A DNA stretch of 25,070 bases from a virus (lineage: Duplodnaviria > Caudoviricetes): positions 1-25,070 of the IMG/VR virus record IMGVR_UViG_3300048562_000077. One strand, written 5' to 3'. The notes under the pieces are model-generated. The model searched no databases. It had not been told where the DNA came from and was given only the letters and a program-made list of their open reading frames with translations. The stretch's first letter is position 1. Each line of letters opens with the position of its first letter. A program made the translations under genes and the position numbers. Positions 424 through 21,026 of the stretch are shown here, piece after piece.

Positions 424-436
424 CCCGCTGTAAATA
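424..436 (+). promoter_or_regulatory. putative late promoter CCCG-CTG-TAAATA upstream of candidate ncRNA
   Basis: CCCGCTGTAAATA is identical to 8283-8295 and is intergenic. Confidence 0.65.
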
Positions 437-440
437 CCGT

Positions 441-618
441 CAGTACGTTGTGTTCCTAGTGATCGTAAAACATCTGCATGAAGCTCTCCTTAAGGAGCGT
501 ACATAACCCAACAACTCCAGAACACAGGAGTTGGGACTGAACTTGGAGAGGGTTTTGTGTTCCCCTTTGCTCTCTCGAACTAAAAGGCCGCTCGTCTAGT
601 CCCGAGCGGCCTTTTTCT
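441..618 (+). ncRNA. candidate structured small RNA (~175 nt)
   Basis: Lies between the TAAATA motif (431-436) and an intrinsic terminator (582-616), with no credible ORF. Hairpins at 486-497, 512-533 and 547-568. Loop GAACACA (520-526) is complementary to loop TGTGTTC (556-562). Confidence 0.55.
582..616. terminator. bidirectional intrinsic terminator
   Basis: AAAA-GGCCGCTCG(586-594)-8 nt loop-CGAGCGGCC(603-611)-TTTTT: a perfect 9-bp GC stem with A and T tracts on either side, between convergent units. Confidence 0.85.
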
Positions 619-985
619 TTGCTCTGGCTTTGTTGAGACGCTCACGACGGGCTTCGTTGGTGATGAGGTGCTGCTCGATCTCTTTCTTCTTCACGGGTAC
701 GCAAGGGTTCTTCCAGAGCCATAGAACCTCGTACCACGCTGGGCGTGGTCTTCCAGCTCTCTTCCACTCTTCACGAGCCTCACGCCACGGCAGAACGAGG
801 TTCGGGTGCTCTGTCTCCCAGACATCCAAGGCCGCACAGAGCGCGTCGTACTTTGCATACGCCTTCTCAATCTCATCGCCGAGCGTTCCATCGCGGATGC
901 ACTCGATGAGGTCTTCAGGCAGGTGGAGGCTTCGCAGGACGTTGCAGTCCTTTTTCCTTCGGTAGTACGTCGCGTCTTTACTCAT
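596..985 (-). CDS. hypothetical basic, Trp-rich protein (129 aa), probably leaderless
   Basis: Protein-like composition. The stop lies in the terminator loop. A - strand TAAATA (997-992) ends 6 nt before the ATG and there is no SD. Confidence 0.65.
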   Translation of the reverse strand: MSKDATYYRRKKDCNVLRSLHLPEDLIECIRDGTLGDEIEKAYAKYDALCAALDVWETEHPNLVLPWREAREEWKRAGRPRPAWYEVLWLWKNPCVPVKKKEIEQHLITNEARRERLNKARAKKKAARD

Positions 986-991
986 GAGGAC

Positions 992-1014
992 TATTTAACG
1001 TCCCGCCCTAAATA
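992..1014. promoter_or_regulatory. back-to-back divergent TAAATA motifs
   Basis: TATTTA at 992-997 (TAAATA on -, facing ORF 985..596) and CCCG-CCC-TAAATA at 1002-1014 (+, facing the small terminase). Confidence 0.65.
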
Positions 1015-1059
1015 ACTCCGTGCCCACCTTGAAGCCATCACGGCCCATCACGGAGCGAT

Positions 1060-1494
1060 ATGACCGACGAGACACTTCCAGTCGCCGTTAGCGACGATGC
1101 CATTGACGCCTCAACAGAAGCCTATCTAAGGGCTGACAACATTCTTGAGTCGATCAACGCGAACTTGCCGGACGGCAAGAAGCTACTTCCTATCCCAAAA
1201 GAGTACGTCTTCAAGAAGCGAGACCGAGAGATTGTCTCCGCTGCGTTTCACGGGGCCTTTGAACTGGCTGGCGGTCTGCCCCGCTTTGTCGCTTGGGCGC
1301 ACCAGAACCCAACACAGTTCTACTCGCTCTACGCGAAGTTGCTCCCGTCTGAGACCCAGTCCGGCGTCAACACCAACATCACCATCGTCTCTGCAATTCC
1401 AGAGATTCCATCAGATCGCACCACCATTGACGAGTGCGGCAAAGCCGCGGTGGCTGAGTTCACTGAAGTCGATGATTTCGACGATCCCGAATGA
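1060..1494 (+). CDS. putative terminase small subunit
   Basis: SD GGAG at 1052-1055 and ATGA overlap with the large terminase. The GGxxxFxxWAxxNPxxFYxLxxKLLP segment is a pattern I associate with small proteins preceding TerL. Confidence 0.7.
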   Translation: MTDETLPVAVSDDAIDASTEAYLRADNILESINANLPDGKKLLPIPKEYVFKKRDREIVSAAFHGAFELAGGLPRFVAWAHQNPTQFYSLYAKLLPSETQSGVNTNITIVSAIPEIPSDRTTIDECGKAAVAEFTEVDDFDDPE

Positions 1495-2915
1495 CGGCCT
1501 TCGTCCACCACTACAAGCCCCGCTCCTACTTCAAGTCCTTTCACTCTAGGACGCAGCGCTTTGCCTGCATCGTAGTTCATCGCCGTGGCGGTAAGACCTA
1601 CGCAGTCATCAACGACATGGTAGTGCGCGGCCTGCGCACGAAGAAGAAGAACTGGCGCGGTGGGTACATCGCGCCCTTCCTCGGTCAGGCAAAGGACGCC
1701 GCCTGGCAGCCGCTGCTAGACGCCGTTGAGGGTATTCCGGGGATCAAGATTTCAAAGAGCGACCTTACGGTCACCTTCCCGAATGGCGCTCGTATCCGCC
1801 TTTACGGTGCCGACAACCAAGAGGCAATCCGTGGTGGCTACCTCGACTACGCCGCCATCGACGAGTACGGCGACATTCACCCTTCAGTGCTGGGCACCAT
1901 CGTTATGCCGATGCTGTCTGGCCGGCGCGGCGTGCTGGTCATCATCGGCACCCCAAAGGGTCAGAACCAGTTCTTTGCCCGCTTTGAGAAGGCACAAGCC
2001 CGTCCAGACACTTGGTATCACGCCTACCTCCCAATCACCAAGACCGGGGAGGAAGCGCTCTCCTATGAGGACCAGCGCGAGGTACGGGAAGAGCTTGAGG
2101 ACCCTGAGTGGAACCAAGAGTTCCTCTGCTCATGGACCGCCGAGTTCCGTGGCTCCTACTACGCCACACAGCTTGAAGCGCTACGCAACAACGTCGTCCC
2201 TGGCCGCATTGGCAAGTTCCCATACATTCCGGGCCATAAGGTCTTTGTGGCGATGGACGTTGGCCGCCGTGACGCCACTGCAATGTGGTACTGGCAGTAC
2301 ATCGCTGGCCGCGTCAACGTTTTTAAGTATTTCGAGAGGACGGGCCTAGACGCCGATGAGGCGTGTGATGTCCTCGACGCTGAGTGTGTCCCGTTTGACA
2401 CGGTGTTCCTGCCACACGACGCCACCCACGAAACGTTCCAGTCCAGAAAGTCAGCTCTCGACACATTCATCAGTCGTGGGCTCCCTGCTCGCAAGGTGCC
2501 GAACCCAGACAAGGGCAACCGCATCTATCACGGCATCGACGCCAGCCGAAAGGTGCTTCGCACATACCCAATCGACTTCGACGAAGTTGGTTGCAAGGGT
2601 GGGCTTGAGGCGCTTGCCAACTACTCACGAAAGTACGACCAGAAGAAGCAGGTCTACTCCGACACTCCGAACCACGACAAGTGGTCGCACGGTGCTGACG
2701 GCTTTCGCTACGCCGCCTGCGCCATCAGTCCTACCGAGATAGCCCGCTCTAAGGAGCGCGCCGAAGCGGTCACTCGCACGGTGCCTGGTCTGCGCGGACC
2801 TCTAAATAACTCGAAGCCGCTTCTGCTCAAGCGCCAGACGCTTGATGAGCAGTTGGCAGAGCACGAACGCAAACAGCGCCAGCTCGACAAGAACAAGTAC
2901 AGGGTCAACTACTAA
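1491..2915 (+). CDS. terL: terminase large subunit
   Basis: Walker A HRRGGKT, Walker B AAIDEY, motif III IGTPKG, nuclease acidic motifs MDVGRRDATA and HDKWSHGADGFRY; 474 aa. Confidence 0.96.
   Translation: MTAFVHHYKPRSYFKSFHSRTQRFACIVVHRRGGKTYAVINDMVVRGLRTKKKNWRGGYIAPFLGQAKDAAWQPLLDAVEGIPGIKISKSDLTVTFPNGARIRLYGADNQEAIRGGYLDYAAIDEYGDIHPSVLGTIVMPMLSGRRGVLVIIGTPKGQNQFFARFEKAQARPDTWYHAYLPITKTGEEALSYEDQREVREELEDPEWNQEFLCSWTAEFRGSYYATQLEALRNNVVPGRIGKFPYIPGHKVFVAMDVGRRDATAMWYWQYIAGRVNVFKYFERTGLDADEACDVLDAECVPFDTVFLPHDATHETFQSRKSALDTFISRGLPARKVPNPDKGNRIYHGIDASRKVLRTYPIDFDEVGCKGGLEALANYSRKYDQKKQVYSDTPNHDKWSHGADGFRYAACAISPTEIARSKERAEAVTRTVPGLRGPLNNSKPLLLKRQTLDEQLAEHERKQRQLDKNKYRVNY
2803..2808 (+). promoter_or_regulatory. 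TAAATA motif inside terL 3' end, upstream of portal
   Basis: CTCTAAATA about 110 nt before the portal start, within the C-terminal extension of TerL beyond the last nuclease motif. Confidence 0.45.
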
Positions 2916-4951
2916 TGGCAACTACACAAGATCAGCTCGCAGCTGACAACAAGATTGACGACAGCTTGACCCAGATGGTTCAGCTGAACGAGCAGCAGAC
3001 GCCTGAAGAACAATCTCGTTGGGTCAAGGAGCTTGAATCCGCGCGTAAGGGTCGAAAGGATTTCGACAACTCTGGTCGCAAGACCATTGAGCGCTACGCC
3101 GCCGAGAAGAGCGACAAGAACACTCACGACTACAACCTATTCTTCGCGAACACCGACATCAAGCTGTCAGCGCTCTATTCGCGCACTCCGCAGCCTGACA
3201 TTCGTCGCCGCAACATGGATGCGAAGGACGACGCTGGTCGTGTTGCCTCCACCCTGCTCCAGCGCACCGTCTCCATGGAGCTGGACATTGACGACTTTGA
3301 TGCCCAGTTCAAGCAAATGCTTTTCGACTGGAAGGTTCCTGGCATCGGTATCGGCTGGGTCCGTCTTGAAGAGACCTACGACACCGTAAGCAACCAGACC
3401 CAGCAGGTGGACCCGGTAACGGGTGCCGTAACCGTCCAAGAGACGAGCGAAGAGCAGCTTGTCGAACAGTCCTCCCCGATCGACTACGTAGCGTGGGTCG
3501 ATTTCCTCTGGGCACCGTGCAAGGTCTGGACCGACTGCCGTTGGATTGCCCGCCGCTGCCCAATGTCCAAGGACGCCATTGAGGCGCGCTTTGGCGATAC
3601 CTGCGATGAGGAAGTTCTCAAGAACCTCTCATACGAGGCTTGCAAGACGGAACAGGACAAGAAGGCCGTCAGCAACGAACTTCAGAACACTACCGACGTA
3701 TTTGAGATTTGGGATAAGGAGACCCGCTCGATCTATTGGATCAGCGAGAGCGCTCCTTACCCGCTCGACGTAAGGGAAGACGACAAGGAGTTTCCTGGCT
3801 TCTACCCGACGCCGCTGCCACCACTAGGCCGCTTCACCACTTCCTCGACCATTCCACGCTCTGACTACCTCCTAGCGCAGGGTCTCTACCAGTCGCTGGA
3901 CCAGCTCCAAGAGAAGGCATGGGGCCTCATTGAGTGCATCAAGGCCATCGGCGGCTATGACAGCTCCATTCCAGAACTCAAGAACATTCTGACGGCTGAT
4001 CCGAACACGATGATCGCCATCAAGGACCTCGCCATCATCAACACCGAGAAGGGTGGCGTCGCCAACGCAATGGCGTTCGTTCCGATTGACCAGTATTCCA
4101 CCGTACTTGCCCAGACGCTTTCGCAGATGGGTGTTGTCAAGCAGCAGATCTTCGAGATCGAAGGTATCGCCGACTTCATGCGCGGTGAGACACAGGCGTA
4201 TGACTCCGCTGCCGCCATCAAGCAGAAGGGACAGTTCGCCCCTAACCGTCTTGGCATGGAGCAGAAGACCGTCGCCAAGTACGTCGAGCGCCTTATTCAG
4301 CTCAAGACGCACATCATTTCGAAGTTCTACAAGCCTGAGATTCTCGTTGACCACGCTGGCGCCATCCCTGAAGCGGACAAGCAGTACCTCGCACAGGCTG
4401 TGCAGCTGTTGCAGTCCAACTTCAAGGCGAACTTCAGCCTGTCCGTTTCGGTTGACTCCATTCAGGACACCTACTGGCGCGTAGAGCAGGAAGAGCGTGC
4501 CAACACCGTTCGCACCGTCAGCGGAATGCTCCAGCAGGCTGGTCCAGCTATGCAGCAGCAGCCACAGATTGCGCCGCTCGTCATTGAGCTTATCCGCTAC
4601 GCCGTTGCCGGCACCAAGGGTGCTGAAGCTATCGAGGGCATCCTCGATTCGACTCTCGATCAGGTGCAGCAGGCCCTCAAGGCCAGCGCTGGTCAGCCGA
4701 AGTCGCCAAGCAAGGAAGAGATCAAGGCACAGATTGCCGAGCAGAAGAACCAGACCGACATGGCCATCTCTACACAGAAGAACCAGACGGACATGGCTAT
4801 CGCTCAGTCTGAGGCGTCGAGCCGCGCCATCAACGACCAGCAAGAGCTTGAGGTGGCAAAGATGAACACCCAAGTGAGCGCCGTAGAGGCGTCAGCCAAG
4901 CTGCTCACCGCAATGCACAAGCAGACGCTTGATCTGTCGAGGGGAAGCTAA
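2915..4951 (+). CDS. portal protein (P22-like, long C-terminal helical barrel)
   Basis: 678 aa, directly after terL with a TAATG overlap. Portal-like segments (GIGWVRLE, VFEIWDK, IFEIEGIADFMRG) and a Gln-rich coiled-coil C-terminus. Confidence 0.9.
   Translation: MATTQDQLAADNKIDDSLTQMVQLNEQQTPEEQSRWVKELESARKGRKDFDNSGRKTIERYAAEKSDKNTHDYNLFFANTDIKLSALYSRTPQPDIRRRNMDAKDDAGRVASTLLQRTVSMELDIDDFDAQFKQMLFDWKVPGIGIGWVRLEETYDTVSNQTQQVDPVTGAVTVQETSEEQLVEQSSPIDYVAWVDFLWAPCKVWTDCRWIARRCPMSKDAIEARFGDTCDEEVLKNLSYEACKTEQDKKAVSNELQNTTDVFEIWDKETRSIYWISESAPYPLDVREDDKEFPGFYPTPLPPLGRFTTSSTIPRSDYLLAQGLYQSLDQLQEKAWGLIECIKAIGGYDSSIPELKNILTADPNTMIAIKDLAIINTEKGGVANAMAFVPIDQYSTVLAQTLSQMGVVKQQIFEIEGIADFMRGETQAYDSAAAIKQKGQFAPNRLGMEQKTVAKYVERLIQLKTHIISKFYKPEILVDHAGAIPEADKQYLAQAVQLLQSNFKANFSLSVSVDSIQDTYWRVEQEERANTVRTVSGMLQQAGPAMQQQPQIAPLVIELIRYAVAGTKGAEAIEGILDSTLDQVQQALKASAGQPKSPSKEEIKAQIAEQKNQTDMAISTQKNQTDMAIAQSEASSRAINDQQELEVAKMNTQVSAVEASAKLLTAMHKQTLDLSRGS
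4742..4801 (+). repeat. 33-bp-period duplication encoding QKNQTDMAI x2
   Basis: Copies at 4742-4768 and 4775-4801 differ only at synonymous sites. 11-residue period in the portal coiled coil. Confidence 0.85.
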
Positions 4952-5304: not shown

Positions 5305-5328
5305 CAACAAGAAGAAGGAATACCCGCC

Positions 5329-6426
5329 ATGTCAGACGAAACAATCGCCACTGGCAACGGAGAGACCCAGACCACTATCGTCGAAGAGACGACTGCTACC
5401 TCTACCGCTGCCCCTGAAACCACCACCACAGCCATTGAAACGGCTGCCAAGGACAACAGCCTCAAGGCCGTTCTTGGCCGCAACTTCGACAAGCTGACAG
5501 CGAAAGCTGGGGATACAACGCAGGCTCCAGCTGCCACCAGCACTGCTGCCCCTGCCGGTGAAATGGACCCAATCACTGGTCGCAAGCTCGACCCAATCAA
5601 GGCCCCACAGAGCGTCCCTCTCGCAATGCGCGAGAAGTGGGCGGCTGTACCACGCGAATTCCAAGAGTTTTGGGCTAAGCGTGAGAACGACATCAACACT
5701 CGCCTTACTCAGACCGCCGAGGACCGCAAGTTTGCTGACCGCTTCAAGACTGTGCTTCAGCCTTACTCCGAGGTGTTCAAGCAGCACGGTGTAGACAGCG
5801 TTCAACACGTACACGGCCTACTTCAGGTGAACCACGCCCTACACGCCGGCACCCCTGAGCAGCGCGCTCAGATCCTCTTCAATCTCGTAAATCAGTTCAT
5901 CGGACAGGACCCTAAGGGTCGCCAGGTCTTCGGTGGTCTGCTGACCGGCAAGGTGCAGCATATCCCTGCCGCGCAGGGTGTCCCAACCGCGCCTGAGAAG
6001 TCTGTTGACCAGCTCGTTGAAGAGCGTATGCAGAGCAAGAGCAGCGAAGCGGAACTCGCGAGCGGCGCCACCGCGCTAGATGCGTTCCTAGCTGATCCAG
6101 CCAACGAGTTCGCGGATGACCAGGAGATTCGAGATTTGATGGGAACGGCCCTTGAGGCTGGACTTGTCAAGGGCGATACCTGGGCGGACGTATGGAAGAA
6201 CGCCTACGCATTCGCCTGTTCTAACCACCAAGGTGTGAAGACCGTTCTAGCGGGTCGTCAGACTCAACAGAGCACCACGGCGGCTGTAACGACCACGACG
6301 ACTCCAACAAAGCCCGTCCAGTCGGTAAAGCCATCCGCAGGCGCTGGTACTCGCACAAACGCCAACATGAAGGGCAAGTCGCTTCGTGAGCAGCTTGAGG
6401 CAGCAATGGATCAGCACGGCAGCTGA
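5329..6426 (+). CDS. putative capsid scaffolding protein
   Basis: Lies between portal and capsid. Thr/Ala-rich disordered ends, helical core, C-terminal SLREQLEAAM helix. SD AAGGA. Confidence 0.75.
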   Translation: MSDETIATGNGETQTTIVEETTATSTAAPETTTTAIETAAKDNSLKAVLGRNFDKLTAKAGDTTQAPAATSTAAPAGEMDPITGRKLDPIKAPQSVPLAMREKWAAVPREFQEFWAKRENDINTRLTQTAEDRKFADRFKTVLQPYSEVFKQHGVDSVQHVHGLLQVNHALHAGTPEQRAQILFNLVNQFIGQDPKGRQVFGGLLTGKVQHIPAAQGVPTAPEKSVDQLVEERMQSKSSEAELASGATALDAFLADPANEFADDQEIRDLMGTALEAGLVKGDTWADVWKNAYAFACSNHQGVKTVLAGRQTQQSTTAAVTTTTTPTKPVQSVKPSAGAGTRTNANMKGKSLREQLEAAMDQHGS

Positions 6427-6438
6427 GCTTTTTGCGAC

Positions 6439-6451
6439 CCCGGTGTAAATA
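6439..6451 (+). promoter_or_regulatory. putative late promoter CCCG-GTG-TAAATA for capsid operon
   Basis: Matches the CCG-N3-TAAATA consensus, just downstream of the scaffold stop. Confidence 0.65.
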
Positions 6452-6456
6452 AAAGC

Positions 6457-6734: not shown

Positions 6735-7718
6735 ATGACATTCCCAGTTGGGCAAATCATTGCCACCACTTACGAGAGCCGCAACGGCAAGCTCTCAGAC
6801 AACTTGACTGCGCACAACGCGCTGTTCAACCACATTAACAAGTCCGGCAACGTCAAGTCGTTCTCGGGCGGCTCAGTCATCACTGAAGAGCTTGTTTGGG
6901 CTGCAAACGGTAACGCTGGTTCGTACAGCGGTGCTGACGCGCTGACCGTGAACGAAACCGGCGGCATCGACCGCGCTGAGTTCGACATGAAGCAGTACGC
7001 GGCTCCTATCGTCTTCACGGGTCGTGACGAGCTGATGAACGCTGGCAAGGAAAAGGTCATTGACCTTCTCGAAGCCAAGATCGAGCAGGCTGAAACCTCG
7101 CTCTTCAACAAGCTCAACGTTGACGCATACGGCGACGGTACCGGCAACTCAAGCAAGGTCATCACTGGTCTCGCTGCTGCTGTTTCTACCTCACCATCCT
7201 CGGGTACCTACGGTTCTATCGACCGTTCGAACTCGTCATACGCTTTCTGGCGCAACAAGAACTACATCTCTGGTGTGGACTTCACGTCTGGTCAGGCAGC
7301 AACTTCCTCCACCATCATCAACCAGCTCGGTCAGGTTGTTCAGGGCGTTACCTTCGGTAGCAACCGTCCAACCGTAATCATCGCTGGTCTGACTGTCTAC
7401 AACCTGCTTCTCGGTGCGACCACCGCGAACCAGCGCTTCATGGACGGTGGCAAGGCGGACGCTGGCTTCCAGTCGCTTGACTTCCAGGGCATTCCAGTTG
7501 TGTACGACGCTGCTAACGCATCGTTCCTCGCAACTCAGGCATACGCTCTGAACACCAAGTTCCTGCGTCTCCGCGTTCACAAGGACCGTAACTTCGTGAT
7601 GCTGAAGGGCAAGGACCCATCGAACCAGGACCTCACCATCGAGACTCTCGTATGGGCAGGCAACCTGACTTCAAGCGGTCAGCGCTACCAGGCTGTCTAC
7701 AGCTCACTCGCGTCATAA
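6735..7718 (+). CDS. major capsid protein
   Basis: 327 aa after the scaffold, with SD GGAGA and strongly biased codons. IIATTxExRxGKLxDN start and FQSLDFQGIPVVYD P-domain-like segment are consistent with an HK97-fold capsid. Confidence 0.9.
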   Translation: MTFPVGQIIATTYESRNGKLSDNLTAHNALFNHINKSGNVKSFSGGSVITEELVWAANGNAGSYSGADALTVNETGGIDRAEFDMKQYAAPIVFTGRDELMNAGKEKVIDLLEAKIEQAETSLFNKLNVDAYGDGTGNSSKVITGLAAAVSTSPSSGTYGSIDRSNSSYAFWRNKNYISGVDFTSGQAATSSTIINQLGQVVQGVTFGSNRPTVIIAGLTVYNLLLGATTANQRFMDGGKADAGFQSLDFQGIPVVYDAANASFLATQAYALNTKFLRLRVHKDRNFVMLKGKDPSNQDLTIETLVWAGNLTSSGQRYQAVYSSLAS

Positions 7719-7730
7719 GGAGTAAGCACC

Positions 7731-8222: not shown

Positions 8223-8246
8223 CGCGTAGGCATCACATCGAAATGT

Positions 8247-8278
8247 AGGGCTGGCTTCGCAAGAGGTCAGCCCTTTTT
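8247..8278 (+). terminator. intrinsic terminator after capsid/decoration genes
   Basis: AGGGCTGGCTTC-GCAA-GAGGTCAGCCCT-TTTT: 12-bp stem with G-U pairs, GNRA loop and U tract. Confidence 0.9.
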
Positions 8279-8282
8279 GCTG

Positions 8283-8295
8283 CCCGCTGTAAATA
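8283..8295 (+). promoter_or_regulatory. putative late promoter CCCG-CTG-TAAATA
   Basis: Begins 5 nt after the terminator U tract and is identical to 424-436. Confidence 0.7.
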
Positions 8296-8357
8296 AGAAC
8301 GCAGCAATATCGCTGTTAACCATTGAGGCCAACCGATAACAAGGTTGGAACCGCACA

Positions 8358-9035: not shown

Positions 9036-9048
9036 AGAGGCGGGTATG

Positions 9049-9086
9049 TAAATACCGGCAGTCCTTCATAACTGAGGCTGCCGGTA
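9049..9086 (+). promoter_or_regulatory. TAAATA motif overlapping an RBS-sequestering hairpin
   Basis: TAAATA at 9049-9054. TACCGGCAG (9053-9061) pairs with CTGCCGGTA (9078-9086), and CCT pairs with the AGG of SD GAGG (9074-9077). Confidence 0.7.
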
Positions 9087-9087
9087 A

Positions 9088-9792: not shown

Positions 9793-9794
9793 GC

Positions 9795-11974: not shown

Positions 11975-13337
11975 TTACACAAGCGCAGCCGAAGCGACAG
12001 CGCAGACAAATCAATGGGCCACACAGTATCAGACAAGCGCCAACCGCCCGGATATGGTCACGCCGTGGGGTACATCCACATGGGACGAGCAGAAGAGCTT
12101 CGATCAGGGCTCCTATGACAAGGCAATGGCGGACTGGAACTCGAAGGACGCCAAGTGGCGCTCTAAGAACCAGGCGCTCATGCCTTCGCAGAACGATTTC
12201 TACACGTCTGACTGGACCAACAACGTAACGCTGACGCCTGAACAGCAGGCTTCTCTGGATGCGCAGCAGCACGTTCAGATGAACCAGTCGCAGCTTGCTG
12301 ACCAAATGCAGGGTCAGGTAGCGGACACCATGTCGAAGGGTCTCGATTCCCCTGAACTTACTGACTACGTCGGAAACGGTCCTCAGCTCAACACCAACTT
12401 TGGTGGGTTTCAGTCAGGCGCTCCGGCCGTCAAAACCGATTACGCCAACTTCTCGAACCCGAATACTGACTTCGAGCGCCTTTCTGGCTTCACTGGCAAT
12501 GGCGTTGGTGCTGTCAACACGACCGCACCTCAGCTCACGTCTGGGCAGGACGCTACAAAGGCCGCTTACGACGCGAACACTGCGCTGCTCAAGCCGCAGA
12601 TGGAGCAGGACACAAAGCGTCTTGACGAAAAGCTACGTCTTCAGGGCCTGACTCCAGGTACCGAAGCCTACAACAACGCGATGCAGAACCTGACTAAGTC
12701 TCAGGGCGCGCAGCTGAACCAGCTTGCCAACCAGTCAGTGCTGACGGGTAACGAGGTTGCAAACCGCAACTTCAGCTCTGAGCTTGCTGGCGCACAGTTT
12801 GGCAACTCAGCGCAAGACCAGCAGTTCGCACAGGAACTCAACAAGTACGGGACCACCCAAGACGCCGTGAAGGGCAACAACGAGTTTTCTCAGCAGGACT
12901 GGACAAACATGCTCGCCGCCTACATGGCTGATCAAGGCGCACAGGACAAGAGCAACACTGCTCAGGCGCAGGCGTATGGGCAGGATCTTGGCGAGTACCA
13001 GACGGACCAGGAAGCACAGCAGAACTCCAACGCTGCTGCTCAGCAGGACTTCCTCAACAACCTTCAGCGCTACTCCACCGTCGACGCTGCCGCATACCAG
13101 AAGTACTACGCACCTTTGAACGCCCTGTCTGCCGTCATGAACGGTCAGCAGGTGCAGATGCCGTCGTTCAATGGCGCACCAAACTCCACAGCTGGCAACG
13201 GTGGTGGCACCGACTACCTCGGCGCGTACACCGCTCTTGGTCAGTACAACAGCGCAGCTGCTGCCGCCAAGAACTCCGCTATCGGCGGAATCTTCGGTGG
13301 TCTCACCAACATGGGCGCTGCCTACCTAGGCAAGTAA
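11946..13337 (+). CDS. putative DNA ejection/pilot protein
   Basis: MGKKAPAAPDY start, Gln/Asn/Ala-rich helical body, C-terminal glycine-zipper-like IGGIFGGLTNMGAAYLG. Synteny after the GNAT. Confidence 0.7.
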   Translation: MGKKAPAAPDYTSAAEATAQTNQWATQYQTSANRPDMVTPWGTSTWDEQKSFDQGSYDKAMADWNSKDAKWRSKNQALMPSQNDFYTSDWTNNVTLTPEQQASLDAQQHVQMNQSQLADQMQGQVADTMSKGLDSPELTDYVGNGPQLNTNFGGFQSGAPAVKTDYANFSNPNTDFERLSGFTGNGVGAVNTTAPQLTSGQDATKAAYDANTALLKPQMEQDTKRLDEKLRLQGLTPGTEAYNNAMQNLTKSQGAQLNQLANQSVLTGNEVANRNFSSELAGAQFGNSAQDQQFAQELNKYGTTQDAVKGNNEFSQQDWTNMLAAYMADQGAQDKSNTAQAQAYGQDLGEYQTDQEAQQNSNAAAQQDFLNNLQRYSTVDAAAYQKYYAPLNALSAVMNGQQVQMPSFNGAPNSTAGNGGGTDYLGAYTALGQYNSAAAAAKNSAIGGIFGGLTNMGAAYLGK

Positions 13338-13346
13338 GGACATCAC

Positions 13347-14519
13347 ATGGATAACGGAATGTTCGACAACCCATTCAACTACTCACTTGAGGACAACACC
13401 CTCAAGCGCCGTCAGCAGATTCGCGACCTCCTGCGCCAGCAGGCGTCGGGACCTGGACAGGCGCAGTTCGTACAGAACGGTGTTGGTACCTTCTACGCTG
13501 GTGGCAACTCCATCGGTGAGAACCTCGCAAAGCTCGGCTCTCAGCTCATCCTTAACCACAAGGATAAGAAGGGCGAGCAACAGCGCACTGACCTTGACAA
13601 CCGTGAGTCTCAGCGCCGCGCCGCTGCTCTCGACATTCTTCAGGGAACTACAGCGAAGCGCTTGGCGGCAGAGGATGCTGCACGCGCCGCGGAACAGCAG
13701 GCTGCGATTGACGCTGGCGAGACCAATGAGCTTCCAGAAGTCGTTGTACGTCCAAAGGGACCATCAAAGGAACAGGCGCTTGCTGTGCTCCGTCAGGGTA
13801 ACGCTGCATCACAGGGCTATGCCAGTGACTACGAAGACAAGAAGGGACTGTTCGCACCACCTGCTCCACCGCCAATCGAGTTCCACGACGGCTACCTCAT
13901 CAACACTTCAACCGGCGAAAGCAAGCGCGTCACCCCAGAGAAGGTCGAGACCTACGAAGACGTTAATGGCGATCTGCGCAACAAGCAGACGGGCGAACTG
14001 GTTAAGAAGGTTGGGAAGGCCGCCGATCCTAAGGCAATCGCCAAGGAGAACGCTGCTGCCATTGAAGAGAAGTCCAGCTTTGAGTCCGCTGATGCTGACC
14101 TTCAGGGCACCATTAACGAGATGCGCCTCATCCTTGAGAACAAGGGCAACGGCTCTGTCGAGGATACCGCTGGCGCATTCAACATGGTCAGTCGCAACAA
14201 TCCGTTCACGAAGGACTACGACACCAAGTTCAACATCGAGCGCGCCATGGCGCAGAAGATCATTGGCAGCCTGAAGCAGATGAAGGCCGCTGGCGTTGGT
14301 ACGTCAGCCTTCAACTCCGACAAGGAAGCCGAGCGCATGGAAAAGGCGTTCGGCGCCATCAACTGGAACAGCAAAGAAGAAGCCCGTCGCCAGCTCAACA
14401 ACATTTACTCCGACCTTCTCGACACACAGAAGCGCGGTCGTGAGGCCTATGCGGCGAGCAAGAAGGCTCACGGCGGTGGCATAGCGCCATCTGGTGGCAT
14501 CAGCCTTGGAGACTTCTAA
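13347..14519 (+). CDS. putative internal virion/ejection protein
   Basis: 390 aa, largely helical. SD AAGGA; synteny. Confidence 0.6.
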   Translation: MDNGMFDNPFNYSLEDNTLKRRQQIRDLLRQQASGPGQAQFVQNGVGTFYAGGNSIGENLAKLGSQLILNHKDKKGEQQRTDLDNRESQRRAAALDILQGTTAKRLAAEDAARAAEQQAAIDAGETNELPEVVVRPKGPSKEQALAVLRQGNAASQGYASDYEDKKGLFAPPAPPPIEFHDGYLINTSTGESKRVTPEKVETYEDVNGDLRNKQTGELVKKVGKAADPKAIAKENAAAIEEKSSFESADADLQGTINEMRLILENKGNGSVEDTAGAFNMVSRNNPFTKDYDTKFNIERAMAQKIIGSLKQMKAAGVGTSAFNSDKEAERMEKAFGAINWNSKEEARRQLNNIYSDLLDTQKRGREAYAASKKAHGGGIAPSGGISLGDF

Positions 14520-16069
14520 TGGCTGAAGACAACAAGAAGCAGTTCGTCGCTGCCGTTAACAACCATGTTGCCGAGCTTGCAAAGAACAACACCTCACCAA
14601 GCCAAATCGTAAGCAGTCTCCTTGTCATTGACAGCGTTCGCCCTCTCATTGAGGAAGGTCGCGCCGCTGGCATGTCTGAAGAACAGATTGTCGAGAAGCT
14701 CGGTGGCAAGCCATACCAGCCATATGCCGCCGCCAATCGAAAGATCGAGGAACAGGGCGGCATTGGCAACTTCGTTCGTGGCATGGGTGATGTTGGCGGT
14801 GACGTTATGCGCACCGTCGGTAAGGCCGGCGACTGGGCAATGGGTAACGATGCCGGGGTTGAGTACGGTCGCCGCCTCCAGGCGGAAGCCGAAGCCAACC
14901 CAATGCGCATGGCCCGTGAGCGCACGGCCTCCGGTGAGGCTGGTCAGTTCGCTGCCAAGGTAGCGCCAAACGTCGTAGCAGCCGCCCTCACGGGTGGTGC
15001 CAGCCTTCCAGCTCAAGCCGCCATCCAAGGTGGTGTGTCAGCTGCCTCTACTGCCCTTTCAGACCCACATGCCACTGCCGGTGATATCGCCCTCAGCGGC
15101 GGTCTAGGAGCGCTCGCCGTTCCAGCCTCTGTGGTCGGTAAAGGCGTTACAGCAGCCCTCGGTAAGGCTGGTGAGAAGGCTGCCGCTCGTGCCGCCTCCA
15201 TCGAGAGCAAGGCACTCAACGTATCTGAAGACGGTATCGACCGCTCCACCTTCAACAGGGGTGTTGCTGAGCGTCTCGGTCTCAAGGACTACCAAGGCCC
15301 AGTAGACCAGACGATGGTCAAGACCGCCGATCAGAACGCAAAGGCAATGTTCGAGGCGGCCAGCAAGGGTCGCGCTGTACAGCCAACAAAACAGTTTCGT
15401 GACTTCGTTGCCAAGACGGCTGACGAGGACCTTGAGGAAGGTGGCAAGGCTATTCGTCGCCTCGTTGGCGATGACCAGTTTGCCCCTGGCACGTTCGTCT
15501 CTCCAAAGAAGTGGATTGAGATGCGCAGCAAGGTGGCTCAGCTCGCTCGTGACGCTAAGGGACAGGACGCCCATTACATCGGAAACATCGTCGAGAAGAT
15601 GGACGACATTATGGCCGCTGGTCGCGCACCTGAGCAGGTGCAGATGCTTCAGCAGGCTCGGCAGGTGTGGCGCAACTTGCAGCCTGTCGAGGACATGGTC
15701 AAGAAGTCCGGCGACAGCGGCAACATCACTTGGAACCACTTCAAGTCGTCCATCAGCAAGGACGTAGACAAATACTCTCGTGGTCAGGCACCGCTTCAGG
15801 ACCTGTCGGAGGTTGCAAAGCAGCTTCAGCCGCAAGGCAAGCTCATTGACGCCATCAAGGGCAGTGGCACCAACAACGCACTAAACGTCGCCGCCATTGC
15901 AATGCCAAAGGTTGGTGTTCCAGTGAAGGCCGCTCAACTTCTCGCTAACAACCCTACTGCCCTTCGCGGCACCGCTAGCCTGCTCAAGAGTGCCTCAAAG
16001 GGTACCGGCAACAAGCTCGCCCAGCAGCTTCTCGGACAGCTCGCCTCTCGTGGCACTGGGAGCCGGTAA
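14519..16069 (+). CDS. putative internal virion/ejection protein
   Basis: 516 aa with Ala/Gly-rich hydrophobic helices (AAALTGGASLPA, IALSGGLGALAV). TAATG coupling. Confidence 0.65.
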   Translation: MAEDNKKQFVAAVNNHVAELAKNNTSPSQIVSSLLVIDSVRPLIEEGRAAGMSEEQIVEKLGGKPYQPYAAANRKIEEQGGIGNFVRGMGDVGGDVMRTVGKAGDWAMGNDAGVEYGRRLQAEAEANPMRMARERTASGEAGQFAAKVAPNVVAAALTGGASLPAQAAIQGGVSAASTALSDPHATAGDIALSGGLGALAVPASVVGKGVTAALGKAGEKAAARAASIESKALNVSEDGIDRSTFNRGVAERLGLKDYQGPVDQTMVKTADQNAKAMFEAASKGRAVQPTKQFRDFVAKTADEDLEEGGKAIRRLVGDDQFAPGTFVSPKKWIEMRSKVAQLARDAKGQDAHYIGNIVEKMDDIMAAGRAPEQVQMLQQARQVWRNLQPVEDMVKKSGDSGNITWNHFKSSISKDVDKYSRGQAPLQDLSEVAKQLQPQGKLIDAIKGSGTNNALNVAAIAMPKVGVPVKAAQLLANNPTALRGTASLLKSASKGTGNKLAQQLLGQLASRGTGSR

Positions 16070-16632
16070 TGGGCTGGGCTGGTGATCTTCTCAACAAGGT
16101 GAAGAAGCTCGATGACCACGACAGCATCGTGGCACGTATCGGTAAGGTCGGTCAGAAGTACACCGACCCGCTTGCTTGGATTCCAGGCGGCATTGGTGAG
16201 GCATATCAGAACGGCCTCGTGAAGATCGCTGACGGCAGCAACGCCGCATTCAGCAAGATCGGCACGTCAGTAGACAAGTACGCATCGAAGCTCGACCCGA
16301 TGCGCCAAATCCCAATCGTCGATAAGGCCGCGGATGAGATCAACAAGCGTCCTGTAGATGCCGCTGCCATTGCAGCAGGCGCCTACTTCGGCGGTTCCGC
16401 CCTCGGTGGAATGATGGGTGGTGACGGCTCAGGTGCTGGTTCCGGTGGAGCCTCTGACTGGCAGCAGTGGGCACGTATGGCTGGCAATAGTCGTCAAGGC
16501 GGCCAGCAGAACAATCAGGGTCAGGACCTTCAGGCTGAACTGCTCCGTCAGCAACAAGAAACAGAACGACTACGCCAAGAAAGGGAGCGCCGCACACAGC
16601 TGGCGCGTCAGCTCTTGGCTCCTAAGAACTAA
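16069..16632 (+). CDS. hypothetical protein, possible ejection protein
   Basis: 187 aa with a hydrophobic AAAIAAGAYFGGSALGG segment and Gln/Arg C-terminal helix. TAATG coupling. Confidence 0.7.
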   Translation: MGWAGDLLNKVKKLDDHDSIVARIGKVGQKYTDPLAWIPGGIGEAYQNGLVKIADGSNAAFSKIGTSVDKYASKLDPMRQIPIVDKAADEINKRPVDAAAIAAGAYFGGSALGGMMGGDGSGAGSGGASDWQQWARMAGNSRQGGQQNNQGQDLQAELLRQQQETERLRQERERRTQLARQLLAPKN

Positions 16633-16666
16633 ATAGACGTACAGCGCAATAGCACCTGTACAGGAG
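16630..16666 (+). promoter_or_regulatory. TAAATA motif with hairpin abutting SD
   Basis: TAAATA at 16630-16635 overlaps the stop codon. GTACAG (16639-16644) pairs with CTGTAC (16656-16661), next to AGGAG (16662-16666). Confidence 0.45.
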
Positions 16667-16673
16667 CACGGTA

Positions 16674-17240
16674 ATGGGTTGGGCACAAGAACTAATGAGC
16701 AAGGCAGGACAGAAGACTGGCAACACACCTGCTACGCCAGACGCGAAGCCGTCCGGTCTGCAACAGATGATGGCGCGTGGCGACACTCGGTTCTCAAACG
16801 CGATGAGCAAGATTGGCGACAGATGGGGCTTTGCGCAGAACCCAGCGTTTCAAAGCGCAATGGCGAAGATGGGAAACAGCCCGTTCTCTGCAATGCTTCC
16901 AAAACAGAACGGCGCACCGACAACCACTGCACCACAGGCTCCACCTTCTGCGCCGCAGAGCGGCATGAGCAGCCCGAAGATGCCGCCCATCGCATACGGA
17001 GACGTAAGCGGTCCAAAGATGCCGCCGATGGCAATGGGCAACGGTGGCTTCATTCCAGCTCCAAGCGGTTCCTTCAGCAGTGCCACGCCGATGCCTACGT
17101 TTGACTCCCAACAGGGGTGGCAGCAGGCGATGGGCAGCAATCCACAAGCCCTCATGAAGAAGCCACAGCCGGTTCCGCCAGCAGGTGCACAGGCGCCGTA
17201 CACGGCCTTTGGACGCCCAAGCGCGCCACCACTGAAGTAA
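16674..17240 (+). CDS. Pro/Met/Gln-rich low-complexity protein
   Basis: Good SD AGGAG. The N-terminus MGWAQELMSK resembles that of the upstream gene. Internal PKMPP duplication. Confidence 0.7.
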   Translation: MGWAQELMSKAGQKTGNTPATPDAKPSGLQQMMARGDTRFSNAMSKIGDRWGFAQNPAFQSAMAKMGNSPFSAMLPKQNGAPTTTAPQAPPSAPQSGMSSPKMPPIAYGDVSGPKMPPMAMGNGGFIPAPSGSFSSATPMPTFDSQQGWQQAMGSNPQALMKKPQPVPPAGAQAPYTAFGRPSAPPLK

Positions 17241-17252
17241 GGACACGACCTA

Positions 17253-18695
17253 ATGCCACGCTCAGGCGGAAACTACACACCACCAGCTCTGTACAACCCA
17301 GTTGTCACAGACACCCCGATTTCGTCGGATGCTTACAATGCCACCATTGCTGACATCGGAAACGAGCTGACTGGTTCGCTGCCTATTGACGGCACTAAGT
17401 CAATGGCCGCTCAGTTCAAGGCCATCGACGGCCTTGTCTCAGCCCCAGGCATCACGTTTAACGGCGAAGCTGGTTCAGGTCTCTACCGCGTCAGTGCGGG
17501 AAACATTGCGCGTGCTATTTTGGGTCAGGGCGTCGAGTCAACGACTACTTCTACCAAGACACTCAACGTAGATCTCACGCTCTCTGGCAGCAAGTCGCTG
17601 ACTGTCGGTGGCTCTGCTGTCATCACTGGAGCCGTCACCGCTGCCAGCTTTGCGGGTGTCGGAACAAACCTTACCTCACTCAATGCAACCAACCTAAGCA
17701 CTGGCACCGTGCCACTCGCTCGCATGTCGGGCACCTACAACATTGGCATCTCTGGCAACGCGGCTACTGTTTCTGGCACCTCGCCAACTTCTGGCGTCGC
17801 AAGTCGCATTGTGCAAGCTGATGGCTCCGGCTACATCAACAATACCTATTTCAACTCGTCAGACAACTCTGTTGGCTCTGGCGTGTCCGGCGTCATGGTC
17901 AAGGCAGGCGACAACTACCTTCGCACTGGCACAGCGGCAGCTATTGCTGCGTTCATAAGCGGACAGACCTTCAATACGGCTGGCAACGCCGCCACGGCTA
18001 CGAATGCTACCAATGCGACGAATGCCACAAACGCTGAGAACTCCACCTACGCCTCCTATGCGTCCACCGTGCTCATTAACGGCGGCTATCGCACCTTCGC
18101 GTGGGCCGGCAATAGTGGACAACCAACGTGGCTTTGGGGCTCGAACGATGGCGTCAACATCCAGCTTTGGAACCCTTCCAACTTCAGCGTTGCATCGGCT
18201 ACCAATGCTACCAATGCAACTAATGCGACGAACGCAACTCGCTCGTACTACGCCAACCGCCTAGAGCGCGCTGAACAGGACGGCTACAACGTTCAAACGG
18301 CCTATGACGGTGCCTACTGGGTTTTGAACGGCTACTACGGCGACACCTACCACGCTGGATGCAAAGTCGATTACGCCAGCTACGCCCTCACCGCTGCATC
18401 GGTACAGAACAACGGCACGTCCACATTCTCGAACACTGGCAACGGCTACCTGCTGTTCCAGAACGGATTCAAGATCATGTGGGGAACCCTAACGACTGTC
18501 GGCAACAACGCCTACACCGTCTCATACCCAACATCGTTCTCGTCCTACTCACGAGTTGTCTGCTCCGGCTCTGGCTCTGGCGGCAACCCACAGGACAACG
18601 CTGCTGAGGTGACGGGCAGCTCAACTTCCAGCTTCACGCTCTATGACGCCTACGACAGCTCACACACGACCTTCTGGATCGCAGTGGGCTACTGA
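17253..18695 (+). CDS. tail fibre protein
   Basis: N-terminal anchor-like domain, Ser/Gly/Thr/Asn-rich shaft with (ATN)n repeats, and C-terminal GYLLFQNGFKIMWG...FWIAVGY tip of the Mu/P2-type fibre class. Followed by a chaperone. Confidence 0.88.
   Translation: MPRSGGNYTPPALYNPVVTDTPISSDAYNATIADIGNELTGSLPIDGTKSMAAQFKAIDGLVSAPGITFNGEAGSGLYRVSAGNIARAILGQGVESTTTSTKTLNVDLTLSGSKSLTVGGSAVITGAVTAASFAGVGTNLTSLNATNLSTGTVPLARMSGTYNIGISGNAATVSGTSPTSGVASRIVQADGSGYINNTYFNSSDNSVGSGVSGVMVKAGDNYLRTGTAAAIAAFISGQTFNTAGNAATATNATNATNATNAENSTYASYASTVLINGGYRTFAWAGNSGQPTWLWGSNDGVNIQLWNPSNFSVASATNATNATNATNATRSYYANRLERAEQDGYNVQTAYDGAYWVLNGYYGDTYHAGCKVDYASYALTAASVQNNGTSTFSNTGNGYLLFQNGFKIMWGTLTTVGNNAYTVSYPTSFSSYSRVVCSGSGSGGNPQDNAAEVTGSSTSSFTLYDAYDSSHTTFWIAVGY
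17997..18239 (+). repeat. two blocks of Ala-Thr-Asn tripeptide repeats in tail fibre
   Basis: (ATN)4 at ~17997-18035 and ~18198-18239, with degenerate codons. Confidence 0.8.
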
Positions 18696-18704
18696 GGACT
18701 TGAC

Positions 18705-19079
18705 ATGATCAAACGATTTTACTCACCAGGTACCGGCGGCTTCTACTCAGATGAGCCACACGCGGCGCTGCGTCCCGATGACTGCATTGAGGTCTCCGAG
18801 TCTAAGTACAACGCGCTCATGGCCGCTCAAGAGAAGGGCAAAGAGATCGTCTTCACTGCGAGCGGTCTCGTGGCACGCGCACCCATCGTAACGATGGAAA
18901 CCATTCGCGCTGCCCGCAACCGCAAGTTGCGCAACACGGACTGGACACAAACGCTTGACATTCCAGAGGCAACGCGCACGGCGTATGCCGAGTATCGCGC
19001 CGCGCTGCGCGCCCTGCCCCAGACGTTTCCAGATCCGACTGCTGTCGTCTGGCCAACTCCACCCAACTCGAATCTCTAA
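18705..19079 (+). CDS. tail fibre assembly chaperone
   Basis: FYSxxTGGFY...IEVSxxxYxALMxAQxxGK N-terminus and RxxRNxxLxxTDWTQ...YRxALRxLPQ...WPTPP C-terminus, both typical of Tfa-type chaperones. Confidence 0.88.
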   Translation: MIKRFYSPGTGGFYSDEPHAALRPDDCIEVSESKYNALMAAQEKGKEIVFTASGLVARAPIVTMETIRAARNRKLRNTDWTQTLDIPEATRTAYAEYRAALRALPQTFPDPTAVVWPTPPNSNL

Positions 19080-19081
19080 AT

Positions 19082-19405
19082 ATGTCCAGCAACACCAACA
19101 ATGTGGGACTGCAAGAAATGTTTGATTACCTGAGGGACGACGTTAAGCAGTTCCGTGACGAATCGAAAGAAGCCTTCCGAGAGATTCGTGATGAGCAGCG
19201 CCGCTTCACAGAGGCACTACTAGCTCACACAAAAGACGACCGCGACAACTTCGCGTCACTCGACAAGCGCCTACAGAACATCGAGGTCAGTGAGGCTGTC
19301 GTTGGCAAGACCAAGGACGCTCGCTTCAATCGCTTCGTTGGCTACTGCGGCCTCGCCGTTGCCTTCATCGCCTCGGTCTGCGCAGTGCTAGCGCTGCTCA
19401 AGTAA
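19082..19405 (+). CDS. coiled-coil protein with single C-terminal transmembrane helix (holin-associated/XhlA-like architecture)
   Basis: Charged helical N-terminus and hydrophobic FVGYCGLAVAFIASVCAVLALL C-terminus. The true start may be 19118. Confidence 0.65.
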   Translation: MSSNTNNVGLQEMFDYLRDDVKQFRDESKEAFREIRDEQRRFTEALLAHTKDDRDNFASLDKRLQNIEVSEAVVGKTKDARFNRFVGYCGLAVAFIASVCAVLALLK

Positions 19406-19414
19406 GAGGACTCA

Positions 19415-20068
19415 ATGAGAAACGGCAGCGGACACTTCGACCTACTTCCAGAACATAACCCAGTTGTCTCAGGGCAGCCGGTCAGTTCTGATTGGGCAAA
19501 TGAAACGCTTGCCGATGTCGCGGCGGCCCTAACGGACTCCCTCTGCATAGACGGACAGTCCACCATGACTGGTGCCCTGCGCCTTGCTACTGGCACAGGC
19601 TCCGCCCCATCCATGACGTTTGGCGCTGAGACCGGCCTAGGTCTATTCCGCTCGTCAGCTGGTGTTCTTGGCTTCGCAGCTGGTGGTGGCTCCGTTGCCA
19701 CAATCTCTGCCACTGCCTTCAACCTCAGCATCGACCTTTCGACGACCGGAAACCTGCTGCGTTCTGTCGCCAGCGCTGTTACGGCAACTGGCACTACCCA
19801 AGGCGATGCGACAATCCTTACTGAGGACATCAGCGTAGTCACGTCTTCGTCAGGAAGCGCGCTGGGCGTCATTCTTCCCAACAAGACTGGTGCTGAGTTC
19901 GTCGTGTTCAACAACACGGTCAATGCCATCAACGTCTACCCAGCCAGCGGCGGCACTATCGACTTCCGCTCTGCCAACGTTGCGTACTCACTCCCGTCTC
20001 ATGCCCGTATCAGCTTTGTGTCCTACGCAGCCAATACGTGGATAACTCTTAACGCATCGCTCGTGTGA
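19415..20068 (+). CDS. short tail-fibre-like protein with anchor paralogous to 17253..18695
   Basis: NPVVxxxPxSSDxxNxTxAD...LTxSLxIDG...SAPxxTF is shared with the tail fibre N-terminus. SD GAGGA. Confidence 0.8.
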   Translation: MRNGSGHFDLLPEHNPVVSGQPVSSDWANETLADVAAALTDSLCIDGQSTMTGALRLATGTGSAPSMTFGAETGLGLFRSSAGVLGFAAGGGSVATISATAFNLSIDLSTTGNLLRSVASAVTATGTTQGDATILTEDISVVTSSSGSALGVILPNKTGAEFVVFNNTVNAINVYPASGGTIDFRSANVAYSLPSHARISFVSYAANTWITLNASLV

Positions 20069-20082
20069 GCAAGGGTCTGTAA

Positions 20083-20994
20083 ATGGCTCATGCTCACGAT
20101 ACTCCAATCTCAGCGGCAGACTTCAACTCACTAGCGACAGCGGCGGCCTACGTTTATGGCGTTGGCAATGGCGATCACGGCTATGGGCAGTCCAGCCCTG
20201 CCCTTCCTACCCTTAGCTCCGATACCGCCAACCCCGCGTCAGCGTGGACAGCCCTTCGAGGCGTCCTTGAGAACTGCTACATGTGGCAGAACACGGTCGC
20301 AACTCTACTTCCACCCTCTATACAGAACTCGTCCGACAACGCCCACGTTGCGTATGCAGCGGGAGACCCAAAGAGCTGGGCAGACATGACGGCTCTGCTT
20401 GACACCAATCGACTTAACTACCAGTTCGGCAACATGGCCTTGGCCTCTTCTGCTGCCAGCACCACCCGTGGCACTACCTGGGATTCGTTCATTCAGGCTG
20501 GCTTCTCCATTGACTACGACTCAGAGAATGCTGCCCGCTACTTCTTCAACACGGGTGGAGAGCTGCGCATTGCGTTTGCTCACCCAAGCACAGCGTCTAG
20601 CCAGGACACCGACTGGCACAACATGCTGGACAACCTGAACATCGCCTTCCGGGCCCACTCGACGGCGAAGCTGACTGGCAACGGAACTGGCAGCAGCATT
20701 GGCTATTACGAACTGACAACGAGTTGGCAGGCTGTCTACACGGTCAATGGTACCGGCGCGTACTCGGCAAACTCATTGGTCGTCTATGCACGCGCTGACT
20801 CCATCACCGGGCTGAACGGTGCGAAGGGTAGCCTGATCTACCTGTATTGCAACTTCAATGAAAGCCACACAAACGCCTTCTACGACGTAGCGCAGTCAGG
20901 CACCGTCGCAACACTTGGGCGCCTGCGCTGTGCTGGCAGCCCACTTCCATCTGCAATCCCAGCTCCAACGTGCGCCGTAGTTGTCGCCCTCTAA
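20083..20994 (+). CDS. putative virion structural protein (GYGQ / ARYFFNxGG type)
   Basis: 303 aa, rich in Ser/Thr/Ala/aromatics. Motifs at 20179-20190 and 20533-20559. Confidence 0.7.
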   Translation: MAHAHDTPISAADFNSLATAAAYVYGVGNGDHGYGQSSPALPTLSSDTANPASAWTALRGVLENCYMWQNTVATLLPPSIQNSSDNAHVAYAAGDPKSWADMTALLDTNRLNYQFGNMALASSAASTTRGTTWDSFIQAGFSIDYDSENAARYFFNTGGELRIAFAHPSTASSQDTDWHNMLDNLNIAFRAHSTAKLTGNGTGSSIGYYELTTSWQAVYTVNGTGAYSANSLVVYARADSITGLNGAKGSLIYLYCNFNESHTNAFYDVAQSGTVATLGRLRCAGSPLPSAIPAPTCAVVVAL

Positions 20995-21009
20995 CGAGCC
21001 GGCCTAGCG

Positions 21010-21026
21010 ACCGTCGTAAATACGAC
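21010..21026 (+). promoter_or_regulatory. ACCG-TCG-TAAATA motif embedded in palindrome GTCGTA-AA-TACGAC
   Basis: TAAATA at 21017-21022, inverted repeat at 21013-21026, intergenic and 37 nt before ATG 21060. Confidence 0.6.

Follow-up and report, generated by a model that had tools for sequence, protein, structure and literature searches.

TAAATA boxes in a podovirus-type element

The stretch analysed here, the 25,070 nt of IMG/VR virus record IMGVR_UViG_3300048562_000077 (hereafter the window; 57% G+C, classed as a provirus, 69% complete), carries a podovirus virion module with genes for the terminase large subunit (TerL), portal, major capsid protein (MCP), SU10-type adaptor, tail, GNAT, ejection-type and fibre proteins. 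Repeated through it is the hexamer TAAATA, which a sequence-only reading of this DNA had taken for a network of T4-like late promoters. That reading had also called the gene set P22-like, but we found no P22 match; the closest isolated phages are instead Myxococcus phages Mx8 and Mx9 and Stenotrophomonas phage BUCT555 (MCP 39–42% identical, portal 27–31%). The genes and hairpins adjoining the boxes are as follows.

582..615, + strand: terminator-like hairpin, with an A run before and a T run after it, where the leftward gene has its 3′ end
596..985, − strand: conserved 129-aa all-helical gene, divergent from the small terminase-like gene
1060..1494, + strand: small terminase-like gene (TerS-like), by position only, no family match
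1491..2915, + strand: TerL (phrog_2)
2915..4951, + strand: portal (phrog_12082)
5329..6426, + strand: scaffold-like protein, by position; weak phrog_25516 match
6735..7718, + strand: MCP of the Mx8/Mx9/BUCT555 family
8247..8274, + strand: terminator-like hairpin 3′ of the capsid operon
9088..23585, + strand: adaptor, tail, GNAT, ejection-type, tail-fibre and chaperone genes of the virion module
23608..25070, − strand: two leftward genes without TAAATA, no family match

The window is most of an integrated element of about 36 kb. Two sequencing-run contigs (36,086 and 35,853 nt), from runs that may be those the window derives from, cover the part compared (17000–25070) and, by coordinates, both would extend beyond the two ends of the window, by about 9.5 kb on the left and 1.3–1.4 kb on the right, which gives the element its size. 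A capsid protein identical to that of the window is also present on an 873-kb contig.

An exhaustive search of both strands returned 11 copies of TAAATA, 10 on the + strand and 1 on the − strand, exactly the sites listed by the sequence-only reading. Dinucleotide shuffling predicts 1.45 (sd 1.23, maximum 6 in 100 shuffles). TAAATA is the commonest A/T-only hexamer in the window, the runner-up having 4 copies; its 18 one-mismatch variants range from 0 to 5 copies apiece. The copies are:

431..436, + strand: no long open reading frame (ORF) before the hairpin at 582–615; possible transcript of about 175 nt
992..997, − strand: ahead of the gene with its ATG at 985
1009..1014, + strand: 51 nt before the TerS-like gene
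2803..2808, + strand: within TerL, which ends 113 nt farther on; the portal gene starts 112 nt downstream of the box
6446..6451, + strand: 289 nt before the capsid gene
8290..8295, + strand: 16 nt past the hairpin at 8247–8274
9049..9054, + strand: ahead of the SU10-type adaptor gene
11910..11915, + strand: within the 3′ part of the GNAT gene, 65 nt short of its end; the next start lies 36 nt downstream
16630..16635, + strand: over a TAA stop; the next start lies 44 nt downstream
19077..19082, + strand: over a TAA stop and the next ATG (TAAATATG)
21017..21022, + strand: 43 nt before the gene at 21060

Nine of these lie at most 120 nt upstream of a start on the same strand, as do 6.5% of all window positions (binomial p about 1e-9), so the expected upstream enrichment is borne out; the tenth is the box ahead of the capsid gene. 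One-mismatch variants fall there in 7 of 35 cases, 3 of them TAAATG stop-start junctions. The claim that every copy sits at a gene junction and none mid-gene needs amending: two boxes lie within genes, TerL and GNAT, both near the 3′ end, and those at 16630 and 19077 begin with a stop codon. The copy at 19077 may be a chance occurrence, since it overlaps both a stop and the next ATG. Directly after the terminator-like hairpin of the capsid operon comes the box at 8290, as had been noted, and the same terminator-then-box arrangement recurs in many relatives. The two leftward genes at 23608..25070 stand outside this layout and lack boxes; they are probably cargo within the element, because the 36-kb contigs end 1.3–1.4 kb past the window.

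Conservation across a clade of relatives

Aligning the capsid protein yielded 55 loci, 39 of them new, at 43–48% identity. The 39 clade loci hold 245 boxes against 56 expected, and the offsets of the boxes from the capsid start recur among them, at about −5800, −4020, −315, +1025 or +1520, and +1820 or +2320. By contrast, a search with TerL gave 183 loci, most of them farther removed, though 5 are clade members or duplicates; together the 183 hold 334 boxes against 400 expected. In a capsid tree of 76 rows, built by a quick method, the window falls on a long branch inside a 32-row clade with 100% support (Shimodaira-Hasegawa-like approximate likelihood ratio test, SH-aLRT). All 30 testable members of this clade have a box 230–360 nt before the MCP gene, whereas 1 of 42 testable rows outside it does (2 rows on each side were too short). 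Mx8 and BUCT555 contain no TAAATA. A blastn comparison of one clade capsid gene with E. coli genomes gave no match, though distant kin may exist there. The related-genome conservation anticipated for the boxes is thus found clade-wide, as are particular arrangements: the opposite-strand pair at TerS (1009 and 997) recurs in most relatives, and a box recurs at about the offset of 11910. The pair stands back to back in the window, L039 and L069; in one subclade (L036:3191-3229, L041:2595-2635 and others) it faces inward, the two boxes being separated by about 39 nt that contain an inverted repeat.

The box inside TerL is informative at the codon level. All 20 of the 20 clade TerL genes examined keep it as xTA-AAT-A, with V, I or L as the residue encoded first, and it uses codons that are rare in the window (AAT for 48 of 373 Asn codons, CTA for 39 of 453 Leu codons). 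Retention through rare codons while the residue varies shows that the DNA word itself is under selection.

Across 190 sites, conservation is confined to the hexamer: no −35, no extended −10 and no downstream element accompanies it. Base frequencies are flat from −40 to −1, in agreement with the earlier observation that no −35 hexamer is shared. The same reading had described CCG-N3 ahead of five boxes (431, 1009, 6446, 8290 and 21017) and a 13-bp identity between 431 and 8290. Both are present as described, but since the conservation ends with the hexamer, CCG is a local feature; as a motif it matched a single one of 7 loci, namely the identical copy, and the clade profile does not show it.

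These results bear on whether a host sigma factor or activator reads the boxes, for instance sigma-70 on a −10 element minus its last T or a stress sigma, so that induction would follow host state. TAAATA does resemble a −10 hexamer, and contigs of the element are present in five RNA libraries. Those contigs, in the four libraries viewed, are thin and flat, show no start sites and may be DNA carry-over. The lack of any conserved −35, extended −10 or downstream element speaks against a host reader, as do the absence of sigma-70 consensus promoters from window positions 1–12500 and the dissimilarity of TAAATA to the sigma-28, sigma-32 and sigma-54 consensus sequences. In an element without a repressor, moreover, boxes that the host could read ahead of its integrase and virion genes would be expected to make stable integration difficult. 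We regard a host reader as improbable.

The boxes resemble late promoters of Burkholderiales T4-like phages

Statements from cited papers refer here and below to excerpts of their texts. The T4 late promoter is TATAAATA at −13 to −6, with CTAAATA as the variant of phage Aeh1 (PMC1524935); T4 late promoters have no −35 and no conserved flank (PMC7892883). At 90%, clade capsids fall into clusters with Massilia suwonensis and Janthinobacterium lividum proteins, and for this reason T4-like phages from that order served as the comparison. Two of them, Delftia phage PhiW-14 and Ralstonia phage RSP15, encode the late sigma gp55. PhiW-14, at 56% G+C, has 23 TAAATA against 6.3 expected, many of them 21–71 nt before late genes. 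RSP15 has 22 against 24 in 50 kb and is too AT-rich for enrichment to appear, though many of its copies precede late genes. The dinucleotide TA stands directly before the hexamer in 13 of 21 T4 copies, in none of the 23 of PhiW-14 and in 4 of 119 across nine clade genomes; the full octamer accordingly occurs 0 times among the 11 window boxes and 4 times among the same 119. By this comparison the element uses the bare TAAATA form of Burkholderiales T4-like phages, not the octamer of T4.

Position, strand, conservation in the clade and through codons, and the Burkholderiales hexamer match together make a gp55-type, −10-only promoter a well-supported assignment on sequence grounds, and the boxes are likely gp55-dependent promoters of the T4 type. 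They share with T4-type late promoters the TAAATA core, the lack of a −35 and the placement before virion genes and after terminators. They differ in lacking the leading TA, in belonging to an integrated podovirus-type element of about 36 kb in whose examined part no gp55 was found, and in preceding accessory, replication and (in relative G010) integrase genes as well. What had been proposed, transcription of this gene set by a gp55-type late sigma, therefore holds as to the kind of promoter. It left open the source of the sigma, which is likely another phage. The boxes also go beyond a late module, since they stand before an integrase, before a primase-helicase pair and before accessory genes that run leftward.

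Could the boxes be strand-specific protein-binding or RNA-processing signals rather than promoters? Two copies overlap stop codons, and the promoter role is a prediction from sequence. Such signals would, on the other hand, account poorly for boxes directly after terminators, for opposite-strand pairs between divergent genes, for the 12–120 nt spacing to starts and for the like pattern in a gp55-encoding phage, and we consider this explanation very improbable.

Folding predictions lend the promoter assignment modest support. If transcripts start at the box, the predicted accessibility of the ribosome site rises by 0.15 for 46 box genes, compared with 0.07 for matched pseudo-starts at 124 control genes (p=0.007); the gain exceeds 0.3 in 9 of 46 and 7 of 124 genes, respectively, and is strongest at the G010 integrase (0.13 to 0.93). 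Accessibility on read-through transcripts is not lower for box genes than for controls (p=0.24). One candidate lock was rejected:

9055..9086, + strand: hairpin (−17.6 kcal/mol) predicted to cover the ribosome site of the gene at 9088

A transcript starting at about 9061 would drop the 5′ arm of this hairpin (−6.2). The hairpin is lineage-specific, being absent at the matching site in most relatives, and for the window copy accessibility changes only from 0.41 to 0.43.

With the spacing of T4 promoters (PMC1524935), transcription from the − strand box (992..997) would begin near 986, one base ahead of the ATG, for a near-leaderless message. The box at 431 is followed up to 615 by hairpin-rich DNA with only a 20-codon frame (478–540); its transcript is possibly a small RNA converging on the gene at 596–985.

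Complete relatives and the search for a reader

We examined 13 relative records whole (the labels G001–G015 and the L loci denote relatives). Three of them, G002, G004 and G012, carry an integrase and are bounded by direct repeats (att) of 121–134 bp, 88–96% identical, and are thus complete islands. For the window itself neither an integrase nor such repeats were seen. The repeats are unusually long; the G004 copies, at 1–121 and 35755–35874, duplicate the 3′ end of a TIGR00645 gene.

No box-reading factor was recognised in these relatives. gp55 (phrog_234) was found in 0 of 10 records and not in G005, and our own gp55 profile, built from 120 homologues and run with filters off against the 13 records, the window and a leftward extension of the window (locus L009), gave a best E value of 9.7. 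In particular, the att-bounded G002, G004 and G012 have no gp55 detected on the same genome. Among the five records at least 95% complete, neither sigma-70 region 2 (PF04542) nor an HTH_3 repressor (PF01381) was found in any. Two PF04542 matches in G011–G015, of 10.7 bits within a 737-aa frame, fall below the 24-bit cut-off and were set aside.

A family search of about 110 element ORFs, chosen by eye from G001–G005 and L009, matched integrase, HNH, H-NS and TIR, together with genes of host type in the flanks and, weakly, a regulator family in L009. It gave no polymerase, helicase or AlpA match. No stand-alone endolysin was recognised in the complete relatives. Muralytic domains occur only fused to virion-module proteins of 716–870 aa, apart from an amidase-labelled family on a 549-aa gene in tail position. 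The exception in replication is G010, where primase, helicase-primase and integrase matches each stand just behind a box.

Two conserved genes of the element were considered as hidden sigma factors, the gene at 596–985 and a 143-aa gene (family A2) that is conserved in G001–G005, G012 and G013 and has no box ahead of it. Comparison with gp55 by hhalign gave probabilities of 0.2 and 1.4, respectively, so neither resembles gp55 by profile. Foldseek returned no match for either at E≤0.001, an Atlas search no usable named match, and fold comparison best Z scores of 6.0 and 5.7 to generic helices and no sigma, with models built from 19 and 5 sequences.

These two genes matter for a different reading of the boxes, in which host polymerase reads them with an element-encoded factor that escapes recognition by profiles, be it an activator or a highly diverged sigma of the gp55 kind; this would make the element an autonomous temperate phage. 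The full head and tail set and the size of about 36 kb would fit such a phage. A2 is a conserved candidate, the all-helical 596–985 product aligns with an extracytoplasmic function (ECF) sigma row at TM 0.42 over 77 residues in a weak model, and about 6.6 kb of the element, left of L009, lies outside the sequence examined. Against these stand the gp55 profile probabilities and the beta-sheet core of the A2 model. The 596–985 family was not found in the L037, L038, L065, L067 and L068 lineages, which keep their boxes. An autonomous phage would further be one whose complete relatives have no recognised repressor or stand-alone endolysin, and a factor of its own would make convergence on the exact hexamer of Burkholderiales T4-like phages a coincidence. 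We think an own factor rather unlikely.

A proposed model of helper-driven activation

Since complete relatives lack a recognisable box-reading factor, activation would likely occur only on infection by a T4-like phage. We therefore propose, with a probability of roughly 0.55, that the element belongs to a group of integrated, virion-encoding, repressor-free and satellite-like elements of betaproteobacteria which have TAAATA ahead of the majority of their genes and whose boxes are read in trans by the gp55 of such a phage. Host polymerase would be unable to read the boxes, leaving the element silent without a repressor, while defence-like cargo, which lacks boxes, would be expressed from host promoters. 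An infecting T4-like phage would supply gp55, probably with gp33 and gp45, and gp55 would turn on excision, replication and virion genes. The element would then package itself in its own podovirus particles and probably leave through the lysis caused by the helper. A related proposition, on which we are evenly balanced, is that there are 'sigma-parasite' prophages, full tailed phages without repressor, sigma, lysis and most replication genes, nearly all of whose core genes have been rewired to the late promoter of the T4-like phages of their host group, and for which infection by such a lytic phage would itself be the induction signal.

Several points weigh against the helper-driven model. Start sites, helper dependence, induction and particles are all predictions from sequence. 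T-even phages degrade host DNA. The clade counts overstate independence, because many rows are close kin. Most complete relatives have no recognisable replication gene, which leaves the mode of replication unexplained; the integrase lacks a box in G002, G004, G005 and G012, although it has one in G010; and no excision joints were found in four DNA runs over region 17000–25070. Among viral contigs, a search for relatives of PhiW-14 gp55 returned PhiW-14 only, and no co-occurring helper was identified. A2 could be an unrecognised activator, many small accessory genes match no family, and the unexamined 6.6 kb counts here too. Finally, T4 late transcription requires gp45 loaded on DNA; with gp55 alone it stays basal, gp33 by itself is repressive, and activation comes from gp33 together with gp45 (PMC7892883). 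Given the loading requirement and the basal activity of gp55 alone, a resting chromosomal island would be a poor first template.

Further features of the element and its relatives

Locus L009 extends the window by 2.9 kb leftward and adds three TAAATA boxes, ahead of the first gene of the window and ahead of leftward genes including an HNH nuclease (L009:89-667, box 35 nt ahead of its start). A small gene at L009:747-992 has a weak match to the phrog_639 regulator family. Exact-pattern scans of viral and metagenome contigs found nothing beyond L009 on the left side, and a genome scan for a leftward extension gave a single distant match.

A variable slot left of TerS (G001 1886-5578, G004 6809-10425, G007 285-6348, G012 7069-12052) contains TIR proteins, PDC-S45, an AAA ATPase, genes of HNH or type IV restriction-like kind and numerous uncharacterised ones, and is likely a defence hotspot. 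Its TIR, type IV restriction-like and ATPase defence-like cargo has no boxes. A PAPS-reductase-like gene of about 250 aa lies between ejection-type genes in G004 (L091:8065-8823), G001–G003, G007–G009 and G012 and is absent from the window; it often has a TAAATA box in it or just after it.

The capsid leader (6452–6734) contains a 15-bp direct repeat, at 6571–6585 and 6657–6671. Its length of about 315 nt is kept across the clade, several relatives holding a conserved frame of about 75 codons there, and it is possibly a structured RNA or a small gene. The fibre-like genes at 17253–18695 and 19415–20068 have similar N-terminal sequences, and the former has repeated NAT tripeptides.

Relation to known satellites and significance

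With Mx8/Mx9 and BUCT555 the element shares a homologous virion module and gene order. In contrast to it, Mx8 encodes a repressor and a replication initiator, and BUCT555 a DNA polymerase, helicase and endolysin, and neither has a TAAATA. Such Mx8-like functions are not recognised in the clade: HTH_3 is found in 0 of 5 near-complete relatives and no replication match in G001–G005, G010 being the exception for replication.

The phage-inducible chromosomal island-like elements (PLE) of Vibrio cholerae and the phage-inducible chromosomal minimalist islands (PICMI) are activated by virulent phages and use helper particles (PMC7567579, PMC10803314). Our element resembles them in being integrated, in a presumed switch-on by a virulent phage, in its defence cargo and, in G010, in a primase-helicase pair. 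Unlike them, it encodes its own terminase, portal, capsid, adaptor, tail and fibres and has no AlpA match among the ORFs scanned. Ando, MulchRoom, Phanie and the phage-inducible chromosomal islands of the capsid-forming kind (cf-PICIs) make capsids and borrow helper tails (PMC13587820, PMC11476376, PMC12822802). Together with MiniFlayer they are like the element in having their own capsid and packaging genes and few or no replication and lysis genes, and Ando and MulchRoom also in having an integrase. The element differs from Ando, MulchRoom, Phanie and the cf-PICIs in its complete short-tail module and, judging from its genes, would need a helper for transcription. It would work like a satellite of a virulent phage and is, by gene content, not a PICI, PLE or PICMI.

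The excerpted accounts of Ando/MulchRoom, MiniFlayer, Phanie and the cf-PICIs report no helper-sigma promoters (PMC13587820, PMC11476376, PMC12822802), and in the excerpts on other satellites (PMC13230959, PMC10055350) the word 'promoter' is absent. In the open-access literature, supplements aside, no account came to light of an element that depends on a helper's late sigma for its promoters.

If the model is right, it would describe lysogeny without a repressor, in which the element is silent because the host is unable to read its promoters and is set off by a lytic phage's late sigma. It would give a concrete and testable answer to how a helper switches on an integrated element, a question that, in the excerpted text, the PICMI paper leaves open for the early regulon (PMC10803314). 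The element would also be a helper-dependent phage that needs neither the capsid nor the tail of its helper, and that present models of satellites would take for an ordinary prophage. The TAAATA layout would then be a simple sequence signature for finding further such elements, and T4-like phages would be predicted to mobilise defence cargo in Massilia and Janthinobacterium, both of which are cultivable.

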